Origin: a virus
Taxonomy: Duplodnaviria > Heunggongvirae > Uroviricota > Caudoviricetes
Reading direction: 5' to 3' (one strand)
IMG/VR virus record: IMGVR_UViG_2731957841_000002
Location: 1 to 9,726 of that record
Length of the DNA: 9,726 bases
Each line of letters begins with the position of its first letter. The first letter of the stretch is position 1. This document shows positions 1-8,986 of the stretch, one piece after another. Both the position numbers and the translations under genes were made by a program. The notes beneath the pieces are model-generated. The model saw only the letters and a program-made list of their open reading frames with translations, did no database searches and was not told the origin of the DNA.

Positions 1-1155
1 ATGCTCACCGTTAAGCAGATTGAAGCAGCAAAGCCGAAAGAAAAACCATACCGCCTACTCGATGGTAATGGCCTGTACCTTTATGTCCCTGTGTCAGGGA
101 AAAAGGTATGGCAGCTTCGCTACAAGATTGACGGTAAGGAAAAAATACTGACCGTAGGAAAATATCCGCTAATGACTTTGCAGGAGGCAAGAGATAAAGC
201 ATGGACCGCGAGGAAAGACATCTCGGTTGGCATCGATCCGGTAAAAGCGAAAAAGGCTTCGTCTAACAACAATTCCTTTAGTGCGATTTACAAGGAATGG
301 TACGAGCACAAGAAGCAAGTCTGGTCAGTAGGCTATGCAAACGAACTTGCCAAAATGTTTGATGACGACATTTTACCCATCATCGGCGGTCTTGAGATTC
401 AGGATATTGAGCCGATGCAACTGTTGGAAGTAATCCGCAGATTTGAAGATCGCGGTGCAATGGAGCGAGCCAACAAAGCACGCAGAAGATGCGGCGAGGT
501 TTTCCGTTACGCTATTGTCACTGGTAGGGCTAAATATAACCCGGCACCTGACCTTGCTGACGCCATGAAGGGATACCGCAAGAAGAACTTCCCGTTTCTT
601 CCAGCAGACCAGATCCCGGCATTCAACAAAGCACTGGCAACATTTTCAGGAAGTATCGTATCGCTCATTGCGACCAAAGTTTTACGCTACACAGCCCTAA
701 GAACGAAAGAACTTCGCTCCATGCAATGGAAGAACGTCGATTTTGAAAACAGGATTATCACCATCGACGCCAGTGTGATGAAGGGACGCAAAATTCATGT
801 GGTCCCGATGTCAGACCAGGTGGTTGAACTTCTCACTACGCTAAGCTCAATCACCAAACCAGTCTCAGAGTTTGTTTTTTCCGGGCGCAACGATAAGAAG
901 AAGCCAATCTGCGAGAACGCGGTATTGCTTGTGATCAAACAAATCGGCTATGAAGGCCTGGAAAGCGGTCACGGATTCAGGCATGAATTCAGCACGATTA
1001 TGAACGAGCACGAATGGCCTGCTGACGCTATTGAAGTGCAGCTGGCACATGCCAACGGCGGATCTGTGCGCGGTATTTACAACCATGCTCAGTATCTCGA
1101 TAAGCGCAGAGAAATGATGCAGTGGTGGGCGGATTGGCTTGATGGGAAGGTGTGA
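1..1155 (+). CDS. intS: Tyrosine site-specific integrase, P4 family (IntS-like)
   Basis: 384-aa ORF. N-terminus MLTVKQIEAAKPKEKPYRLLDGNGLYLYV fits the P4-integrase arm-binding domain pattern. C-terminal catalytic region has GHGFRHEF (His/Arg) and RGIYNHAQY (candidate Tyr nucleophile). Symbol assigned from memory of E. coli IntS; not verified. Confidence 0.9.
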   Translation: MLTVKQIEAAKPKEKPYRLLDGNGLYLYVPVSGKKVWQLRYKIDGKEKILTVGKYPLMTLQEARDKAWTARKDISVGIDPVKAKKASSNNNSFSAIYKEWYEHKKQVWSVGYANELAKMFDDDILPIIGGLEIQDIEPMQLLEVIRRFEDRGAMERANKARRRCGEVFRYAIVTGRAKYNPAPDLADAMKGYRKKNFPFLPADQIPAFNKALATFSGSIVSLIATKVLRYTALRTKELRSMQWKNVDFENRIITIDASVMKGRKIHVVPMSDQVVELLTTLSSITKPVSEFVFSGRNDKKKPICENAVLLVIKQIGYEGLESGHGFRHEFSTIMNEHEWPADAIEVQLAHANGGSVRGIYNHAQYLDKRREMMQWWADWLDGKV

Positions 1156-1158
1156 GGC

Positions 1159-1218
1159 ATTAGCGCAAGACGAATCGACACCTTCGCCAGTTTTGAGTTT
1201 TTTTTGCGCTAATTTTTT
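1159..1218 (+). terminator. Candidate intrinsic terminator after integrase gene
   Basis: 10-bp inverted repeat ATTAGCGCAA (1159-1168) / TTGCGCTAAT (1204-1213) followed by a T6 run (1213-1218). The enclosed loop is long (35 nt), so the call is weak. Confidence 0.3.
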
Positions 1219-1252
1219 GCCACAATCATGCTCCAGGCAATGAAAGCAAGCT

Positions 1253-1275
1253 GATGGTAGGTTATGATTACCATC
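1253..1275. promoter_or_regulatory. Inverted repeat GATGGTA-N9-TACCATC upstream of acyltransferase gene (candidate operator or RNA hairpin)
   Basis: Perfect 7-bp arms at 1253-1259 and 1269-1275, about 33 bp upstream of the ATG at 1308, at the GC-content transition into the AT-rich cargo gene. Confidence 0.2.
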
Positions 1276-1307
1276 TAATATTTATTCTTAAATAAGATGA
1301 GTATAGC

Positions 1308-2402
1308 ATGACCCTAAATAATAAAAACCTTGACATTCAAGCGCTAAGGGCGGTAGCCATAATAATGGTTATTCTACAACATTATAGAAATAGATTACCT
1401 TCGCCAGATTGGTATTTGAGCAGTTTTAATTACGTTAATTATTGGGCTGGAGTTGATATATTTTTGGCTATATCTGGATATTTGATGGCTAAAAGCTTAA
1501 CTGGGGAAATAAAAAAAACCGGCAGAACAACTAAAACATTTTTATTATTTTTATCTAAAAGAATATTTAGGCTAGCCCCATGCTTACTTGTATGGGGCAC
1601 CATCTGTATAATAATCTCTTATTTTATGCAACCTTCTTGGGGTGTTTCACCTCTTAAATCATTCACTACGTTATATACATCCCTACTTGGTTATTCTAAT
1701 ATCCACTTCTATAGGTGCGCAGTAACAGCAAATGATTGTGACCAAATGAATGCGGTGACCTGGTCTCTATCTTTGGAATGGCAACTGTATGCTATAATTG
1801 CGGCAATCATGCTGCTCTTTAACAGGAAAAATCTGACGATTATTTTCATATTCATAGTAGCTATTGCATCTTTCCTGCCAGTAACTCAAATGTACTATCA
1901 ATCCATTGGTTGGTGGATTAGACCACAAGCATTCTTTCTGGGAGCAATTATATTCATAACTGGAAGCAAGTGTTATGTAAGCAATAAATGCACAAGACTA
2001 TTTTTTATTATAGTTTGCATTTTTGTTTTACTCGTTGCCCCTCAGCACTTTAACTATAGATTGACATTACCTGCGATTGGTTTTGCTGGTGCATTATTAT
2101 TTCTATGTTTTATTAGTGGTGGTGTGGTAGATAAAAAAGATAATCCAGCATATAAAATGCTGGACTGGATTGGGGATAGATCTTATAGCATTTATCTTTG
2201 CCATTTACCATTACTACATGTAACAAGGGAGGTTTTGAACAAACTCTCCCTTAATACCGTCATTTACGAAAACAAAGTTATATACTTCTTCGCTTTCATT
2301 CTTTTGCTAGTTGTCTTTTCTGATTTATCATATAGATATGTAGAAAAGAAATTTATAAGAACAGGGAGACTAATAATGAGTAAAAATATTTCACCACTAT
2401 AA
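1308..2402 (+). CDS. Integral-membrane acyltransferase, acyltransferase-3 family (Oac/OafA-like O-antigen acetyltransferase candidate)
   Basis: 364-aa ORF, very hydrophobic with multiple predicted TM segments. N-terminal motif LRAVAIIMVILQH matches the conserved R-x10-H region of acyltransferase-3 proteins. Strongly AT-rich relative to flanking genes. Sits in the integrase-proximal cargo slot. Confidence 0.8.
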   Translation: MTLNNKNLDIQALRAVAIIMVILQHYRNRLPSPDWYLSSFNYVNYWAGVDIFLAISGYLMAKSLTGEIKKTGRTTKTFLLFLSKRIFRLAPCLLVWGTICIIISYFMQPSWGVSPLKSFTTLYTSLLGYSNIHFYRCAVTANDCDQMNAVTWSLSLEWQLYAIIAAIMLLFNRKNLTIIFIFIVAIASFLPVTQMYYQSIGWWIRPQAFFLGAIIFITGSKCYVSNKCTRLFFIIVCIFVLLVAPQHFNYRLTLPAIGFAGALLFLCFISGGVVDKKDNPAYKMLDWIGDRSYSIYLCHLPLLHVTREVLNKLSLNTVIYENKVIYFFAFILLLVVFSDLSYRYVEKKFIRTGRLIMSKNISPL

Positions 2403-2576
2403 TTCATCAATATATTCAGGGGGCAAAAACCTACCCTCTGAATATGTATACCCAACACCAACAACGCTATTGTCGTCAAGCTTTATACAGAGATAATCAT
2501 CGTATTGTTTTCCATCGCCGTTCCATAATATAACGTTAATCACAACATCATTTTCTACCAATGCATATTTCATCAT
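2397..2576 (-). CDS. Small hypothetical protein (59 aa), translationally coupled to the upstream fibre gene
   Basis: Hand-translated: MMKYALVENDVVINVILWNGDGKQYDDYLCIKLDDNSVVGVGYTYSEGRFLPPEYIDEL. Its ATG (2576-2574) overlaps the fibre gene TGA (2575-2573) as ATGA. Below the length cut-off of the supplied ORF track. Its 3' end overlaps the convergent acyltransferase stop by 6 bp. Confidence 0.4.
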   Translation of the reverse strand: MMKYALVENDVVINVILWNGDGKQYDDYLCIKLDDNSVVGVGYTYSEGRFLPPEYIDEL

Positions 2577-3475
2577 GCATACTCCCAGATAAGAACAATA
2601 CCATTACCACCGGCGGCTCCGTTATATTGGGTGGCATTATTCACATATGCGTTAGCCCCACCGCCCCCAGCCCCGAAACCAGTCGGCAATACACCGATAC
2701 CCGCTGAGCCGTGTGGATTACCACCCACACCTAATGGACTATTACCTCCGCCACCAGAGATGATAGAGCTAGTCGATATAGCCATGCCAATAGTTGGATT
2801 CTCTCCAGAGAGATTTAAAATATTACCTCCGGATGCTATAGGAATTCCTGGTGAGTTCTGAATAATAGGAGGTACCCCATTTCCTGAACCACCACCAAAT
2901 CCACCGCCAGCGGTTATAGATCCGAAAGAAGATCCACCACCGTTTCCTCCATTACCGTTAACCCCACCAGCTCCACCAGCTCCAATGGTTACAGTATATG
3001 CTGAGTCTAAATTGGTGATACGGGATTTAGCGTAGGCGCCACCTCCCCCTCCACACCCAACTGCAACACTGGTAGAGTTAGTTGTACCAACCCCGCCCCC
3101 TCCTCCGCCTGCGCCTTGGACTTCAACAATAATGCTTTTCGTTCCTGGGGTTGGCGTATAAGTCCCGGATGTCGTTATTGTGCGAACACCAATAAGCCGT
3201 CCTGTTGCAGCCTGCTCTACCGCACTCGCTAATTGCGCAGAGAGCCCCGCAATATCACCATTATCTTTCACATCCTCACTGGTATTATCTGCGATAAACT
3301 GCCCCACAGCAGCCGCCATTGCCGTTCCTTGCCTCAGACCTTTGTTCACCTGAGCACTTGATGCCTTCCCCGATGTAAAGCCAGCAGATAGGACAGGTAA
3401 TGATTCCCAGTCTGTCTGAGTTGTTACGTTAGCACCAGAGCCAGTTGCAAATGGTTTAAATTCATTTTTAGCCAT
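2573..3475 (-). CDS. Glycine-rich phage tail-fibre-like protein
   Basis: Long GGxGG/GNGG tracts typical of phage fibre or collar proteins. N-terminus MAKNEFKPFATGSGANVTTQ. Start chosen at ATG 3475-3473, overlapping the upstream gene stop as TGATG. The ORF track's alternative start at 3493 adds 6 codons but has an SD only 1 nt from the ATG. Confidence 0.7.
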   Translation of the reverse strand: MAKNEFKPFATGSGANVTTQTDWESLPVLSAGFTSGKASSAQVNKGLRQGTAMAAAVGQFIADNTSEDVKDNGDIAGLSAQLASAVEQAATGRLIGVRTITTSGTYTPTPGTKSIIVEVQGAGGGGGGVGTTNSTSVAVGCGGGGGAYAKSRITNLDSAYTVTIGAGGAGGVNGNGGNGGGSSFGSITAGGGFGGGSGNGVPPIIQNSPGIPIASGGNILNLSGENPTIGMAISTSSIISGGGGNSPLGVGGNPHGSAGIGVLPTGFGAGGGGANAYVNNATQYNGAAGGNGIVLIWEYA

Positions 3476-4155
3476 CAGAGTAATTTCCCCCATGCTCCTA
3501 CATCAAAACCACTGATGAATTCGTTATCCATATCAAAACCAAAAAATTTTGAACCTTCCGATGGAGTTTCCACCGAAGGTGTTTCAATGCCACCCGCCCA
3601 CACACCGGCGGCTTTTACTGTGAGATACCCCTGTTTAATTGCCGCAATTAACTCACGCGATACATCTGAAATATCAGTATCAGGAAAGACCCAGACCGAT
3701 ATCGTCATGTCCTGGTTATCGACAATCTGCATTCGCAGCCCGGCTCCTGCTGTCGCCGTGTCAAGAATTGCCGGAAGCGAATCATTCCGTCCGTCCCAGT
3801 TATTAATCGCAATCTTCGCTTTAAGGATGACACGATAAGTTTCATCGCTGAGGTACATGTATCCGGAATCAGGATCGTATGGCCCCTGCCATACACCCTG
3901 ATCATATCCAAGCCCGTCGGTATCCCAGCTGAAATAGATACCTGAGATAGGCTGGCTGACAACACGGCTACGCCCGATCCACAATCCCAGAATGTCAAGT
4001 TGCACACCAACGGCAGAGTCAATATCAAATGCAGTAATCAGCCCTCTGGTGGCAGCCGCAACATCAATAAGCGGCCGGGTCATCAGATCAACATGCGCAA
4101 GAAATTTAGGTTTGGTGGCGTGGTAGTTCGTGATTAGTTCGGTGTATTTGCTCAT
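3475..4155 (-). CDS. Phage tail/baseplate-associated protein of unknown function (possibly DUF2612-type)
   Basis: 226-aa ORF in an operon with the fibre gene. ATGA overlap with the upstream 172-aa gene. Family assignment is from memory and tentative. Confidence 0.7.
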   Translation of the reverse strand: MSKYTELITNYHATKPKFLAHVDLMTRPLIDVAAATRGLITAFDIDSAVGVQLDILGLWIGRSRVVSQPISGIYFSWDTDGLGYDQGVWQGPYDPDSGYMYLSDETYRVILKAKIAINNWDGRNDSLPAILDTATAGAGLRMQIVDNQDMTISVWVFPDTDISDVSRELIAAIKQGYLTVKAAGVWAGGIETPSVETPSEGSKFFGFDMDNEFISGFDVGAWGKLL

Positions 4156-4670
4156 GACTCCACCGTTATAACGATATTTTCCGGGGTACAGGACGCAGAT
4201 TCGTTATATCTGATATCAATGTTTGATGACGACAAAGCCCCCGGGGATTTCCCAATCGTCAGTTCCTGAATATCGTAATAGCGTGCATTACCGGTTTTAG
4301 CGTTGGCATTATCCGGTTGTTTCTGGAACGCAACACTGCGTGCCGTGATGATGTCGCCGCTGACCTTGTTGCGGATCACGATAACGTTATTCCCCCATGT
4401 GGCAGAAGACTGGCTCTGTGCGTTATACGCCAGCGACAATTTTTTATTTGTCGGTGATGTCTTCAGAAGGTTAACGGTAATCGTCCCGCTTTTATCTGCA
4501 TGGAGACTGTGCATCACTTCGCCATCAGCACCGATGGTCATGGTGTTTTTAGGACCGCCCATCGCAACCACAATCCCCTCTTCAGAACTTGCAGAACCGT
4601 ACCCGAGGTCAATCGAACCGGTCGGCCCGGTCAGCGTCGCAGTGACATCCATAAAAGAATAGGTAGACAT
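4152..4670 (-). CDS. Phage tail-module protein, unknown function (172 aa)
   Basis: First gene of the leftward tail remnant. SD-like AAGGGGAAG upstream of the ATG at 4670. Coupled to the downstream gene. Confidence 0.7.
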   Translation of the reverse strand: MSTYSFMDVTATLTGPTGSIDLGYGSASSEEGIVVAMGGPKNTMTIGADGEVMHSLHADKSGTITVNLLKTSPTNKKLSLAYNAQSQSSATWGNNVIVIRNKVSGDIITARSVAFQKQPDNANAKTGNARYYDIQELTIGKSPGALSSSNIDIRYNESASCTPENIVITVES

Positions 4671-4680
4671 TCACTTCCCC

Positions 4681-4773
4681 TTAGCGAACAACGTTAATCT
4701 GTACGTCAGCGTAATGAACCGCGCCTGCAAGTTTTATTGCAGCCTGAATCACCGGAGCCTTAAGGGCGCACAT
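4681..4773 (-). pseudogene. Probable C-terminal remnant of a deleted late gene (30-codon ORF ending ...APVIQAAIKLAGAVHYADVQINVVR)
   Basis: Hand-translated frame reads like a genuine protein C-terminus and stops just before the RBS of the 172-aa gene. Overlaps the end of the truncated cro-like ORF in another frame. Confidence 0.3.
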
Positions 4774-4882
4774 AGATCCCCTTCACCTTGTCTGCGGTAG
4801 CTCCCTGTGTGCATCCAACTGCCTTAGCAAGTGTTGTTTGAGAGATATTCAGTGACTCTCGATATTTTCGTAGGTTGCTCAT
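4760..4882 (-). CDS. Cro-like HTH protein, apparently C-terminally truncated (40 aa)
   Basis: MSNLRKYRESLNISQTTLAKAVGCTQGATADKVKGIYVRP has an HTH (ISQTTLAKAVGC) and is divergent from cI, as cro is in lambda. GGAGGG lies upstream of the ATG. Shorter than typical Cro proteins (about 60-75 aa). The ORF track's 97-aa version runs upstream through the operator region. Confidence 0.5.
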   Translation of the reverse strand: MSNLRKYRESLNISQTTLAKAVGCTQGATADKVKGIYVRP

Positions 4883-4908
4883 ATGCCCTCCATAGTAACC
4901 ATGAAACA

Positions 4909-4937
4909 ATAATACGATATGTACTTTTAGAATGCAA
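4909..4937 (-). promoter_or_regulatory. pR-like promoter for the cro-like gene
   Basis: On the minus strand: -35 TTGCAT (4937-4932), 17-bp spacer, -10 TATTAT (4914-4909). The spacer contains a GTAC-centred motif shared with the pL region, a candidate operator. Confidence 0.4.
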
Positions 4938-4993
4938 ACAAAAAATACATCTTGTGCATGGATGGTTTTAGTACAGAGCGTAATAATAAGGGT

Positions 4994-5653
4994 ATGAAAA
5001 TGAAATGGTATGAACTGGCTAGATCCAGAATGAAAGAGCTCGGCATAACTCAAGAGAAGTTAGCTGAAGAGCTTGGTATGACGCAGGGTGGAATTGGTCA
5101 CTGGTTGCGCGGATCTCGTCATCCATCTCTTGACGAGATTGGTGTGGTGTTTAAATACCTTGGTATTGATAACGTCTCATTCAACCACGACGGTACATTT
5201 TCACCTGTTGGCGAATACTCATCTGCCCCCGTTAAAAAACAATATGAGTACCCTGTTTTTTCTCATGTTCAGGCCGGGATGTTCTCGCCTGAGCTTAGAA
5301 CCTTTACCAAAGGTGATGCGGAGAGATGGGTCAGCACAACCAAAAAAGCCAGTGATTGTGCGTTTTGGCTTGAAGTTGAAGGTAATTCCATGACCGCGCC
5401 AACAGGATCCAAGCCAAGCTTTCCTGACGGGATGTTAATTCTCGTTGACCCTGATCAGGCTGTTGAGCCAGGTGATTTCTGCATAGCCAGACTTGGTGGT
5501 GACGAGTTTACCTTTAAGAAACTGATCAGGGATAGCGGTCAGGTGTTCCTCCAGCCACTAAACCCGCAATATCCAATGATTCCATGCAATGATAGCTGTT
5601 CCGTAGTAGGGAAAGTTATCGCCAGCCAGTGGCCTGAAGAGACATTTAGTTAA
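4994..5653 (+). CDS. cI: CI-type prophage repressor (HTH N-terminal domain plus S24 LexA-like autopeptidase C-terminal domain)
   Basis: C-terminal half nearly matches lambda cI as I recall it: [50 protein letters not shown] (Ser nucleophile), FTFKKL (Lys), plus an Ala-Gly cleavage site in QAGM. N-terminal HTH domain is unlike lambda. Start placed at ATG 4994 (AAGGG upstream) rather than the TTG at 4952 in the ORF track. Confidence 0.9.
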
Positions 5654-5684
5654 CAGCCTCACCACTCTAAAACACACAACAATA

Positions 5685-5713
5685 ACCCGACCTTAGCGTC
5701 GGGTTTTCTTTTT
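5685..5713 (+). terminator. Intrinsic terminator downstream of cI
   Basis: Stem ACCCGAC (5685-5691) / GTCGGGT (5698-5704), 6-nt loop, then TTTCTTTTT (5705-5713). Confidence 0.6.
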
Positions 5714-5778
5714 CCAAAATATAAACCCATTAAATACAAAGCGTTATAAAAAACTAATTATATTTAGAACATTTTGTA

Positions 5779-5807
5779 TTGACTCGATAAAGTACAAATC
5801 GTACTAT
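5779..5807 (+). promoter_or_regulatory. pL-like early-left promoter
   Basis: -35 TTGACT (5779-5784), 17-bp spacer, -10 TACTAT (5802-5807). The downstream transcript start region ATCAGCAGGACGCACTGACC matches the lambda pL transcript start as I recall it. Confidence 0.5.
5791..5805. promoter_or_regulatory. Candidate repressor operator (palindrome AGTAC-N5-GTACT) overlapping the pL -10
   Basis: Perfect 5-bp inverted arms. Related AGTAC/GTACT motifs recur in the cro-cI intergenic region (4921-4925, 4970-4974). Confidence 0.3.
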
Positions 5808-5846
5808 TTAGCCATCAGCAGGACGCACTGACCACCATGAAGGTGA

Positions 5847-5877
5847 TGCTCTTAAAAATTAAGCCCTGAAGAAGGGC
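5847..5877 (+). promoter_or_regulatory. nutL-type antitermination site (boxA TGCTCTTAA plus boxB hairpin GCCCTGAAGAAGGGC)
   Basis: boxB (5863-5877) is identical to the lambda nutL boxB. boxA (5847-5855) differs from lambda CGCTCTTAA at its first base and resembles the rrn-type boxA TGCTCTT. Spacer is AAATTAA as in lambda. Confidence 0.7.
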
Positions 5878-6049
5878 AGCATTCAAAGCAGAAGGCTTTG
5901 GGGTGTGGTGAAGGGTTCATGGATGGGAATATGTCGCACGTAAAGCGGCGAGGCCTGCGGAACTATTGCCGAATTGAAGTCGGCCGAAGCAGGTCGAAAT
6001 GGGTCTCCCACCTACCACACCACCAAAGCTAACTGACAGGAGAATCCAG

Positions 6050-6253
6050 ATGGCAAAGCAATCAAAACCATCACCTACACCTGAACAGGTTCTAAAAGCA
6101 TTCACTGACGCAGCAATGCAGAAAAACACCGTGGAAGAGCTTAAACAGGCGTTCGCCAAAGCGTGGAAGATGCTCGAAGGAACACCGGAGCAGCACAAAG
6201 CGCAGGACGTTTACAACATCAGACGAGACGAATTAGAAGGAGCGGCTGCTTAA
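6050..6253 (+). CDS. Hypothetical small protein (67 aa) in the position lambda N would occupy; not N-like
   Basis: AGGAGA RBS and ATG context match the lambda N start region as I recall it, but the protein (MAKQSKPSPTPEQVLKAF...) has no arginine-rich motif. The ORF track's upstream extension from 5999 lacks an RBS. Confidence 0.6.
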   Translation: MAKQSKPSPTPEQVLKAFTDAAMQKNTVEELKQAFAKAWKMLEGTPEQHKAQDVYNIRRDELEGAAA

Positions 6254-6636
6254 TGGCACATTCGATTACTGTAAGACTAAACAAACCCGCAAGAGAGTTT
6301 CAGGCCGGGGAAAATATCGGATTCAACATCCGTGCTGGCGTTCAGTATTACGATCGCCAGACAAAAAAGAAAGAATGGACAAACTACAGCGCCGTTGTAT
6401 TTGCCAAGCCAGGAGCGCAAGCGGATTACTACCGTAGTGTTCTTGTTGAAGGTGGCATTGTGGAAATTACCGGAGAAAACATCAGGGTTGATGTTTATCA
6501 GGGGCAAAATGGTCAATCAATCACTCTTGAATTACTGAATGCAAAGATTGGATTTGCAACTTCAGGAAACAGCCAACAGCAGCAAAGTAGCAATCATCAA
6601 AATCATCCTGAATACGACGATTCAATTCCCTTCTAA
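6253..6636 (+). CDS. SSB-like single-stranded DNA-binding protein (short form, 127 aa) with conserved acidic C-terminal tip
   Basis: C-terminus ...PEYDDSIPF resembles the E. coli SSB tip DFDDDIPF, preceded by a Q-rich linker. The N-terminal ~100 aa is compatible with an OB fold (KEWTNYSAVVFAK, VEGGIVEITGE). TAATG stop/start overlap with the upstream gene. Confidence 0.7.
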   Translation: MAHSITVRLNKPAREFQAGENIGFNIRAGVQYYDRQTKKKEWTNYSAVVFAKPGAQADYYRSVLVEGGIVEITGENIRVDVYQGQNGQSITLELLNAKIGFATSGNSQQQQSSNHQNHPEYDDSIPF

Positions 6637-6659
6637 AGTAGCAAAATAAGGATTCCATT

Positions 6660-6953
6660 ATGCCAGCGCCTCTGTATGGTGCGGATGACCCGCGCCGCTG
6701 TTCCGGCAATTCCGTATCGGAGGTGCTGGATAAATTCAGAAAAAACTACGACCTGATAATGTCGCTACCGCAGGAAACGAAAGAGGAAAAGGAATTTCGT
6801 CATTGTATATGGCTTGCAGAGAAAGAAGAGCGCGAGCGAATTTACCAGACATCAATCCGACCATTCCGCAAAGCCACATATACCCACTTCCCTGAAATTG
6901 ACCCGCGCCTGCGTAATTACCGCTCACGCTATGGCGCTATCAGTAATGACTGA
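6660..6953 (+). CDS. Hypothetical protein (97 aa)
   Basis: AAGGA RBS 7 nt upstream of the ATG. Operon context. No recognisable domain. Confidence 0.6.
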   Translation: MPAPLYGADDPRRCSGNSVSEVLDKFRKNYDLIMSLPQETKEEKEFRHCIWLAEKEERERIYQTSIRPFRKATYTHFPEIDPRLRNYRSRYGAISND

Positions 6954-6963
6954 GGAATTAACA

Positions 6964-7254
6964 ATGAAAACAATGAAGCTAAACATCGACCTCGGAAAAT
7001 ACGTTATTACCGGAACCAAACACGACCTGATTCTTAGTGAAATAGGAATTATCAAAGAAGGTGAGAATGCAGGGAAAGAAACACTAAGTCGTATCGGTTA
7101 TTACAGCAAGTTTGAGCATCTGGTTAAAGAGTTATGCAACCGTGAAATTCTGTTATCTCAGGCGCAGACGTTACAGGATATTCAGCAGCATATCGAGACT
7201 TTATGTGTGTCACTTAGCATGGCTATTGACCAGTTCGTGGAGAGTAAATCATGA
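6964..7254 (+). CDS. Hypothetical protein (96 aa)
   Basis: GAGGAA RBS upstream of ATG 6964. The ORF track's longer version from 6814 overlaps the preceding gene and lacks an RBS. Confidence 0.6.
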
Positions 7255-7415
7255 GAGGACTTGCATACAATCCCGGCATTCTTCCGGCAGAAATGATTAT
7301 TCGCCAACGCGTAAAGCCAATGCCATCGAGAGAGGAATTGCTTAAGAGAAATTCTTTTCCGTCAGTAAATCAAAACAAATATCTGAATGCGATGTTGCGG
7401 AGTGGGAAAAAATGA
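7251..7415 (+). CDS. Hypothetical small basic protein (54 aa), translationally coupled at both ends
   Basis: Hand-translated: [58 protein letters not shown] overlap with the upstream gene stop and ATGA overlap with the downstream gene start. Below the ORF-track length cut-off. Confidence 0.35.
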
Positions 7416-7963
7416 AACAAATGTCACTAATTGAGATGGATGGTTTTCTGAAAGATAAATGCATCCCAAGTGATTTAAAGGTTAACGAAACAAACGCTGA
7501 ATATCTGGTGCGTAAATTTGCTGAAGCGGAGGCCAAGATTTCGGCTCTGTCCGAAGACCAGCAGAGAGCGATTGAGTCAATTAAGCAGGCTGATGCAGCT
7601 GTTAAGTTGGCACACGAGAAGTTTTCGGCGCTTGCGGCGGAGAATGCGGTAATGCTCGAAACTATTGAAGCCGTTCGCAGTGTTGCGGATAACTCCAGTG
7701 GAATTGCCGGATGGCATTTGAATGGCGATATCGCCACATGGGAAGAGATTCTTCCTGAAATTAACGATATCGAAACCCCAGCCACCGATGCTTTCCTGGC
7801 TGAAGTACGGGCGCAGGGGGTAGAGATGTACGCAGATAACCTCGACAACGTAGCAGACGACGCAGAACGAGGTGGTTTTGATTATGCCGTTAAGTTTCTA
7901 CGCAGTGAAGCGTCTAGTGTACGTTTGTTCGCCGACCAGCTTCGCAAAGGAGGCAACCAGTGA
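7412..7963 (+). CDS. Hypothetical acidic protein (183 aa)
   Basis: Operon context. GTGA overlap with the downstream gene. The antisense 168-aa ORF over the same region is low-complexity and judged spurious. Confidence 0.65.
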
Positions 7964-8484
7964 GCAAGATTGACTATCAGGCACTGCGTGAGTTAGCAAA
8001 ACAGGCAACACAGGGTGAATGGGTCGCATTTATTTCGCCGGGCAAATACGGCACGTACGCCGTACACACACCAGGTGATAATCATCACGGAGATATTGTC
8101 GACTGGCCAGGATTCGACGAACAGAAAAACGCAGAGAACAACGCTCGTTATATCGCAGCTTTCAACCCTGAAGTAGTGCTGGCACTGCTGGATGAACGGG
8201 AAAGAAACCAGCAATACATAAAACGCCGCGATCAGGAGAACGAGGAAATTGCGTTAACGGTAGGGAAGTTGCGCGTTGAGCTTGAGGCAGAAAAACAGCG
8301 GGCAAAGGATCTGTTTATGGAAAATGCTCGGCTTAAGTCAGGTATAGCCGGTCTGATACACCTCGGTATTCGATATGCAGATGTTGAGGTCATGAAAATT
8401 GCTGGAGATGCCCAGCTTTCTACCCCATGCACTGACAGCATCATAAACAGCATTGCAACAGGCATTCGCATCAAAGGAGAGTAA
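7960..8484 (+). CDS. Ead/Ea22-like early protein
   Basis: N-terminus [21 protein letters not shown] matches the conserved N-terminal signature of Ead/Ea22-like lambdoid early-left proteins as I recall it. GTG start with AAAGGAGG RBS. Confidence 0.75.
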   Translation: MSKIDYQALRELAKQATQGEWVAFISPGKYGTYAVHTPGDNHHGDIVDWPGFDEQKNAENNARYIAAFNPEVVLALLDERERNQQYIKRRDQENEEIALTVGKLRVELEAEKQRAKDLFMENARLKSGIAGLIHLGIRYADVEVMKIAGDAQLSTPCTDSIINSIATGIRIKGE

Positions 8485-8686
8485 TATGAGCAGGAATACG
8501 GGTTTGTAAAAGATAACGCTTGTGAAAATGCTGAATTTCGCGTCGTCTTCACAGCGATGCCAGAGTCTGTAGTGTCAGATGATGACCGTACTCAAACATC
8601 GGGTTGAGTATTATCTTACTGTTTCTTTACATAAACATTGCTGATACCGTTTAGCTGAAACGACATACATTGCAAGGAGTTTATAA

Positions 8687-8968
8687 ATGAGTATCAATGA
8701 GTTAGAGTCTGAGCAAAAAGATTGGGCGTTATCAATGTTGTGCAGATCCGGTGTCTTGTCTCCATGCAGACATCACGAAGGTGTTTATGTAGATGAAGGT
8801 ATAGATATAGAGTCGGCATACAAATATTCCATGAAGGTTTATAAGTCTAATGAAGACAAATCCCCATTCTGCAATGTGCGAGAAATGACTGATACCGTGC
8901 AAAATTATTATCACGAGTACGGTGGAAACGATACTTGCCCTCTCTGTACAAAACATATAGATGATTAA
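8687..8968 (+). CDS. Hypothetical Cys-containing small protein (93 aa), AT-rich
   Basis: AAGGAG RBS 8 nt upstream. Five Cys including a CPLC pair. Preceded by a 200-bp intergenic region and followed by tandem terminators, a moron-like arrangement. Confidence 0.6.
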   Translation: MSINELESEQKDWALSMLCRSGVLSPCRHHEGVYVDEGIDIESAYKYSMKVYKSNEDKSPFCNVREMTDTVQNYYHEYGGNDTCPLCTKHIDD

Positions 8969-8986
8969 ACCAAATATTACATAACA

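Follow-up and report, generated by a model that had tools for sequence, protein, structure and literature searches.

[quoted passage not shown] The question is raised by positions 6253 to 6636 of the 9,726-nucleotide stretch of DNA analysed here (the window). The first-pass annotation, which called the gene an orphan, had placed two answers side by side: the protein could be a decoy or modulator of the host proteins that interact with SSB, or it could be the leftover of a lost recombination module. We consider it highly probable that 6253-6636 encodes, in intact form, the HK97 gp40/HK022-type SSB of the lambdoid Rec module, hence a known and ordinary gene, and the decoy or modulator idea appears unlikely.

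The reading frame itself is real. Located on the + strand, it specifies 127 amino acids followed by a stop codon at 6634-6636 and represents an ssb gene of the SSB-1b (HK97 gp40) type. Its ATG at 6253 overlaps, within the sequence TAATG, the codon that terminates the upstream ORF, and has GAAGGAG ahead of it; mechanical ORF calling had set a GTG start (6163-6636), in place of which the ATG is the biologically sensible one. The product divides into an OB-fold domain (residues 1-105; 6253-6567, +), a disordered linker rich in Gln, Asn and Ser (residues 106-120; 6568-6612, +; pLDDT below 50 at 108-121) and the acidic tip YDDSIPF (residues 121-127; 6613-6633, +), which is read directly from the sequence as the end of ...NHPEYDDSIPF. 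In all 127 of its 127 residues it is identical to an ORF of the phages HK022, mEp213 and PhiR12_2, the codon-level comparison with HK022 giving four synonymous and no non-synonymous differences. The exact protein sequence occurs on at least 1,000 contigs, and 320 homologues are retrieved at E ≤ 1e-3. The identity with HK022, the number of homologues and the match to the PHROGs family phrog_44 ('single strand DNA binding protein'; E 1.8e-28, residues 2-127) together place 6253-6636 far from a chance ORF. The gene is carried by 579 of 5,426 complete E. coli genomes, and in ten of ten rows sampled among these carriers it is labelled 'hypothetical protein' and adjoins an 'ERF family protein'. A run of six A residues lies inside the gene (window 6363-6368), and the ssb of phage HF4s (L002:3201-3596) has one A fewer in this run, with the effect that the gene is split into ORFs of 94 and 36 amino acids; the run thus looks like a slip-prone site of inactivation.

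Assignment of the protein to the canonical SSBs by direct sequence comparison was considered and rejected. Pfam returned no match at E < 0.1, the NCBIfam model TIGR00621 (ssb) scored 16.4 bits against a cutoff of 53.95, phmmer against the PDB gave one SSB at E 0.042, and the profile built from the SSB-1b homologues found no SSB in the PDB better than E 0.72. The Pfam family PF00436 is absent also from ten distant members of the SSB-1b family. By the thresholds of these resources, the sequence comparisons place the product outside the canonical Pfam/TIGRFAM SSB family.

The predicted structure tells more. The AlphaFold2 model, computed for the monomer from a 38-sequence alignment, has a mean pLDDT of 84.7 and shows residues 1-105 as a β-barrel and residues 108-127 as disordered. 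The strands of the OB domain comprise residues 3-8, 14-18, 21-34, 39-51, 69-74, 76-84, 87-95 and 98-103, and the only helix assigned by DSSP (55-63) sits between strands of the barrel, as in the OB topology. The OB fold, which the first-pass annotation had proposed to look for, is predicted with confidence. The 50 best PDB matches in Foldseek are, without exception, SSBs of bacteria or mitochondria or PriB (best E 2.9e-5, TM 0.4-0.55). An hhalign comparison of the SSB-1b family with E. coli SSB gave a probability of 84% and aligned W42 and F50, both conserved across the family, with W54 and F60, two residues by which E. coli SSB binds ssDNA; counterparts of W40 and W88 were not resolved in the same alignment.

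Conservation within the family follows the predicted architecture. The mean column entropy is 0.86 in the OB domain, 2.39 in the linker and 1.58 in the tip, and the linker is hypervariable in both length and sequence. PF or PY ends 81 of the 106 full-length homologues, in 78 of the 81 with at least two acidic residues just before, which marks the tip as conserved in the family; distant members end in DFDDDIPF, the same as host SSB. A longer subgroup (P0091, P0095, P0097, P0106-P0108, P0117 and P0118) ends in ...NFQQPR or ...FNQPQR and is without the acidic IPF tip, and the homologues P0101, P0102 and P0119 have DDIPF followed by 3-5 additional residues. In its overall layout the ssb product is thus built as an SSB, and it probably functions as one.

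The gene is flanked by a remnant of erf and by abc2, and the description of it as an orphan, like the statement that no recombinase was recognisable, does not hold. Immediately upstream, at 6050-6253 (+), lies an ORF of 67 amino acids that begins with the ATG of the antiterminator gene N and continues, in the same frame, with codons 136-201 of erf. Its residues 2-67 are identical in 65 of 66 positions to residues 136-201 of HK022 Erf, and the remnant aligns to the C-terminal part of phrog_1097 ('Erf-like ssDNA annealing protein'). The same 67-residue protein is found as KRR55707.1 of E. coli VL2732. Pfam detects no PF04404, the ERF annealing/oligomerisation domain, in the remnant, and erf codons 1-135 are deleted. 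The ATG at 6050 is the start of N in phage 720R6, and the native ribosome-binding site of N is retained as a strong Shine-Dalgarno sequence, AGGAG, 7 nt upstream of it.

The deletion junction is located at 6052/6053, where 683R2/720R6-like sequence on the left meets erf-like sequence on the right. The left side (4795-6053), which spans the cro remnant, cI, PL and nutL and extends 4 nt into N, is 99% identical to the phages 683R2, Louie and 720R6; from 6053 onward, the window follows HK022, HK446 and 720R6 through the 3' end of erf, ssb and abc2 at an identity of about 97-98%. Phage 720R6 possesses both halves, and the 1,939 bp that lie between them there, comprising N, an ORF on the opposite strand, two small ORFs and erf codons 1-135, are absent from the window. 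Microhomology at the junction is at most 1 nt, and the reading frame is continuous across it, ATG of N being followed by GCA AAG CAA..., which corresponds to A136, K and Q of Erf. The conserved order erf-ssb-abc2, together with this deletion of 1.9 kb from N through erf codon 135, bears out the suggestion that the SSB is the leftover of a lost recombination module. Because the 5' part of erf and N have been deleted, the SSB is an 'orphan' by decay and not by design. The earlier statement about missing genes stands to the extent that the window retains neither an annealing domain in intact form nor an exonuclease or O/P replication gene, and fails in that the erf remnant can be recognised. Likewise, a conventional recombinase partner next door, which the first-pass annotation took as speaking against its proposal, is essentially what erf provides, in truncated form.

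What is retained of Erf is, according to its model, a discrete domain: AlphaFold2 predicts a three-helix bundle with a pLDDT of 87 from a shallow alignment of 13 sequences. Foldseek with this C-terminal fragment found nothing significant in the PDB (best E 2.2), neither the C-terminal domain of Red-beta nor lambda Orf, and a homologue search with the 67-residue remnant yielded only 18 fragments. In Erwinia phage vB_EhrS_59, the C-terminal ~55 amino acids of gp42 (L017:1805-2668), a Sak4-like P-loop ATPase, are homologous to the Erf C-terminal domain at 51% identity. From this sequence relationship, the domain seems to have been shuffled between unrelated annealing-protein cores, and its occurrence at the end of gp42 suggests that it behaves as a portable partner-binding module.

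Downstream of ssb, the ORF of 97 amino acids at 6660-6953 (+) is abc2, a P22-type anti-RecBCD gene (PF11043, E 6.2e-65; phrog_656, E 4.1e-55). The first-pass annotation had proposed to search this ORF and one of 183 amino acids for annealing-protein folds, and neither has turned out to be an annealing protein. For the 183-residue ORF that identity was rejected by the profile searches: it matched only PHROGs of unknown function overlapping Ead/Ea22-type families, had no Pfam match, reached NCBIfam models only below threshold and had no sequence match in the PDB. The ORF of 96 amino acids at 6964-7251, a DUF5405 protein, is called 'replication initiation protein' in phrog_154 (E 1.9e-31) and hence in the RefSeq record of HK446; for a protein of this size in the ea region, the label looks doubtful.

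Further upstream, a promoter scan identified a PL-like promoter (TTGACT-17 nt-TACTAT) at about 5779-5808 (+), which overlaps an operator-like 20-nt sequence having its inverted repeat at OR (4908-4927; 90% complementary). Sequence inspection and a hairpin scan located the hairpin GCCCTGAAGAAGGGC at 5863-5877 (+), which we take to be a lambda-type nutL boxB; N, the protein expected to act on it, is deleted from the window. The gene of the cI-type repressor is intact (4952-5653, +; HTH_3 PF01381, E 8.1e-11; Peptidase_S24 PF00717, E 2.1e-28; phrog_4), its product carries the S24 autocleavage domain, and a terminator-like hairpin (5684-5705) follows it. On the + strand from 5808 to 8985, the terminator scan found no terminator-like site. 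The cro gene appears truncated (window 4760-4880, - strand); homology to the 720R6/683R2 immunity region begins at 4795, adjoining a tail-tube-like gene at 4152-4670. A second deletion junction lies near 4795, having left cI intact and cro broken.

The window as a whole is a complete, multiply deleted cryptic prophage of 9.7 kb, of the KplE1/CPS-53 type and inserted at argW. Over its full length it is 100% identical to positions 3952-13677 of a 427-kb scaffold (L011), in which the element starts directly after tRNA-Arg(CCT), with fadL, mlaA and yfdC upstream, and ends ahead of dsdC-dsdX-dsdA-emrYK. This argW site is that of the K-12 cryptic prophage KplE1/CPS-53. The two elements share the site at the argW tRNA-Arg(CCT) between yfdC and dsdC as well as the genes at their ends, intS at one and the 66-residue excisionase TorI at the other, and they differ in between: KplE1 of K-12 has yfd genes, whereas the window has an acyltransferase, tail and baseplate remnants on the minus strand, the truncated cro, the intact cI and the remnant of the PL operon with the erf C-terminal part, ssb, abc2 and ea genes. 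The acyltransferase (Acyl_transf_3 family; window 1308-2402) adjoins intS at the place where K-12 KplE1 has yfdGHI and is followed by remnants of a glycine-rich tail fibre and of a baseplate wedge. Over positions 1-4293, its left part, the window matches E. coli strain PI24 at 100% identity.

By analogy with related modules, the original function can be pictured as follows. In the intact phage, where erf, ssb and abc2 form part of the leftward PL operon, the OB domain of the SSB would coat single-stranded DNA that arises upon infection or induction. The flexible linker would present the acidic ...DDSIPF tip, a putative mimic of the host SSB tip, so as to bring its own annealing protein, Erf, and perhaps also partners of the host SSB to the SSB-coated DNA; Abc2 would meanwhile neutralise or hijack RecBCD. 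In the window, a single illegitimate deletion of ~1.9 kb has brought the ATG of N directly against codon 136 of erf, taking with it N, genes of the kil region and the annealing domain of Erf. Left over from this event would be a short operon just downstream of the cI-repressed PL, composed of the Erf C-terminal domain (67 amino acids), SSB, Abc2, ea genes and torI. We infer that this remnant operon is under the control of the repressor, can be induced by the SOS response and has ceased to need N; its transcription probably occurs only when the S24-type repressor is cleaved in the SOS response.

Such an arrangement invites the question of whether the host has made use of it. According to a reading that we hold to be very improbable, the operon has been domesticated, and the host keeps an N-independent, SOS-inducible mini-operon, with its SSB tip, its unattached C-terminal domain of Erf and its Abc2, as a decoy or modulator directed at the SSB interactome and RecBCD. 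The local organisation is compatible with it: the in-frame deletion puts a strong native ribosome-binding site and ATG before a confidently folded Erf C-terminal domain that is translationally coupled to ssb, no terminator is predicted on the way from PL to ssb, and the element has kept an intact repressor that can be cleaved. Besides the window, about 46 near-identical contigs of E. coli, from different samples, share the junction, the exact junction ORFs of 84 and 67 amino acids having been read on 24 and 22 of these contigs, respectively (Logan, ENA, NCBI), including E. coli VL2732. Over 3-7 kb, however, these copies show 0-1 SNP relative to the window, and being near-clonal, they indicate that the junction persists through recent common descent, not through selection or long-term maintenance. 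Against domestication there is also the distribution of the junction, all of whose recovered copies lie in draft or metagenome contigs, 5,426 complete E. coli genomes having yielded none, and the fate of one otherwise identical copy (L013:5139-8131), in which an IS21-family element (IstA/IstB) has inserted into the ssb linker (window ~6584-6597) with loss of the tip. A role of the operon as a defence system was rejected, since PADLOC matched no defence model to any of its genes. As to the free Erf fragment, the precedent of Red-beta also counts against domestication: its C-terminal domain makes the main contribution to binding the C-terminal peptide of SSB, and that domain alone did not bind the peptide (PMC7496540).

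Two other E. coli prophages have suffered independent damage to erf with ssb (127 amino acids) and abc2 intact (L019:8001-8922 and L020:7689-8997), one through a ninF-side deletion that left an ORF of 72 amino acids for the C-terminal domain and the other through a split of erf into ORFs of 57 and 97 amino acids. Their retention of the stretch from the C-terminal domain through ssb to abc2 is an anecdotal point in favour of domestication. The most specific version of the idea, an accidental SOS-inducible mini-operon of the N-ATG::erf-CTD fusion, SSB-1b and Abc2 that a host lineage has kept and that, when DNA is damaged, tunes both RecBCD and the SSB interactome, with the free Erf C-terminal domain and the SSB tip as a pair of soluble competitors, is likewise regarded as very improbable. 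None of the evidence indicates domestication or an acquired host function. Before a new role is suggested for an 'orphan' gene of a cryptic prophage, one should look for partner genes cut short where deletions have joined the sequence.

A different alternative concerns the protein's activity. The OB-fold protein might be something other than a general coat of single-stranded DNA, namely a RecBCD-directed accessory factor like P22 Abc1 or a PriB-like adaptor that uses the tip only for protein contacts. We judge this to be quite improbable. The gene occupies the slot of P22 abc1, the links to SSB by Pfam, TIGR00621 and the PDB profile are weak, and the family is small and discrete, with 213 representative clusters among 1.84 billion proteins. 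Equivalence with P22 Abc1 on the basis of the shared slot was nonetheless rejected: BLASTP gave no alignment at E ≤ 100, and Abc1, located between erf and abc2 in the P22-like PL operon just as the window ssb is, lacks both the acidic IPF tip and any detectable similarity to SSB-1b. The combination of linker and tip is a hallmark of bacterial-type SSBs and is kept even in distant members, and the alignment of W42 and F50 with aromatic residues of E. coli SSB likewise favours an SSB. A precedent exists in phage HK620, the protein of which, formerly annotated as 'abc1' in the equal slot, proved to be a true SSB (PMC5928155).

The reading as an ordinary SSB of the lambdoid Rec module is in line with what is known of the closest relatives. 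The ssb product is identical to HK97 gp40 in 120 of 127 residues (94%), and gp40 was named 'SSB-1b' in a 2025 survey of 325 lambdoid phages (Genome Res 2025, PMC12315714), based on a predicted structure that resembles bacterial SSB despite an identity of 15% or less; the naming relies on the prediction alone, no experiment on the type being cited there. The same survey describes an 'HK75-type' module, found in 27 phages, that consists of an anti-RecBCD protein, an SSB and an annealing protein and has no nuclease (PMC12315714). HK97 gp40 and the HK022 ORF share with the window the protein type, the erf-ssb-abc2 slot in the PL operon and the predicted SSB-like OB fold; unlike in these phages, only the final 66 codons of erf remain in the window, and N is missing. 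The gene order erf-ssb-abc2 is that of HK022, HF4s, 720R6 and HK97. In Vibrio phage K70, Erf (55% identical) is directly followed by an SSB-1b homologue (50% identical) with the tip ...DWDEDIPF, and this adjacency suggests that the pairing of erf with ssb is old. The tip of HK97 gp40 (L004:2787-3176, -) is altered to ...YDDSNPILI, whereas the window keeps ...YDDSIPF, and the acidic tip may therefore not be essential in every phage. With a product identical to that of a gene in a phage sequenced 25 years ago, and of a type since classed as a Rec-module SSB, the locus has little value as a discovery. It does expose a gap in annotation, Pfam being without a model for SSB-1b and the sampled RefSeq/NCBI rows giving 'hypothetical protein', which a family model would close.

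Compared with E. coli SSB, the window protein has the same three elements of OB fold, disordered linker and acidic tip (DDDIPF in the host, DDSIPF in the window), realised at only ~14-19% identity in structure-based alignments and in 127 instead of 178 amino acids; its linker comprises 15 residues and is rich in Gln, whereas that of E. coli SSB is rich in Gly, Pro and Gln. The SSB of HK620 (HkaK, 'SSB-2') likewise has its gene between that of an annealing protein and abc2 (order sak4-ssb-abc2) and carries an acidic tip ending in PPF/IPF. By description it is of another sequence type and not a homologue of bacterial SSB (PMC12315714), and its partner Sak4 is a RecA-like ATPase, whereas the partner in the window is Erf. 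The HK620 protein stimulates Sak4 via its last six residues (PMC5928155), and RecT proteins bind to SSB by recognising its C-terminal 7 residues (bioRxiv 10.1101/2020.04.14.041095). The HK620 SSB serves as the experimentally studied model of the probable action of the window SSB, and the compact SSB-1b family with its host-like tip would offer a clean test case for the reading of SSB tips by annealing proteins of the Erf class, following the work on Sak4 of HK620.
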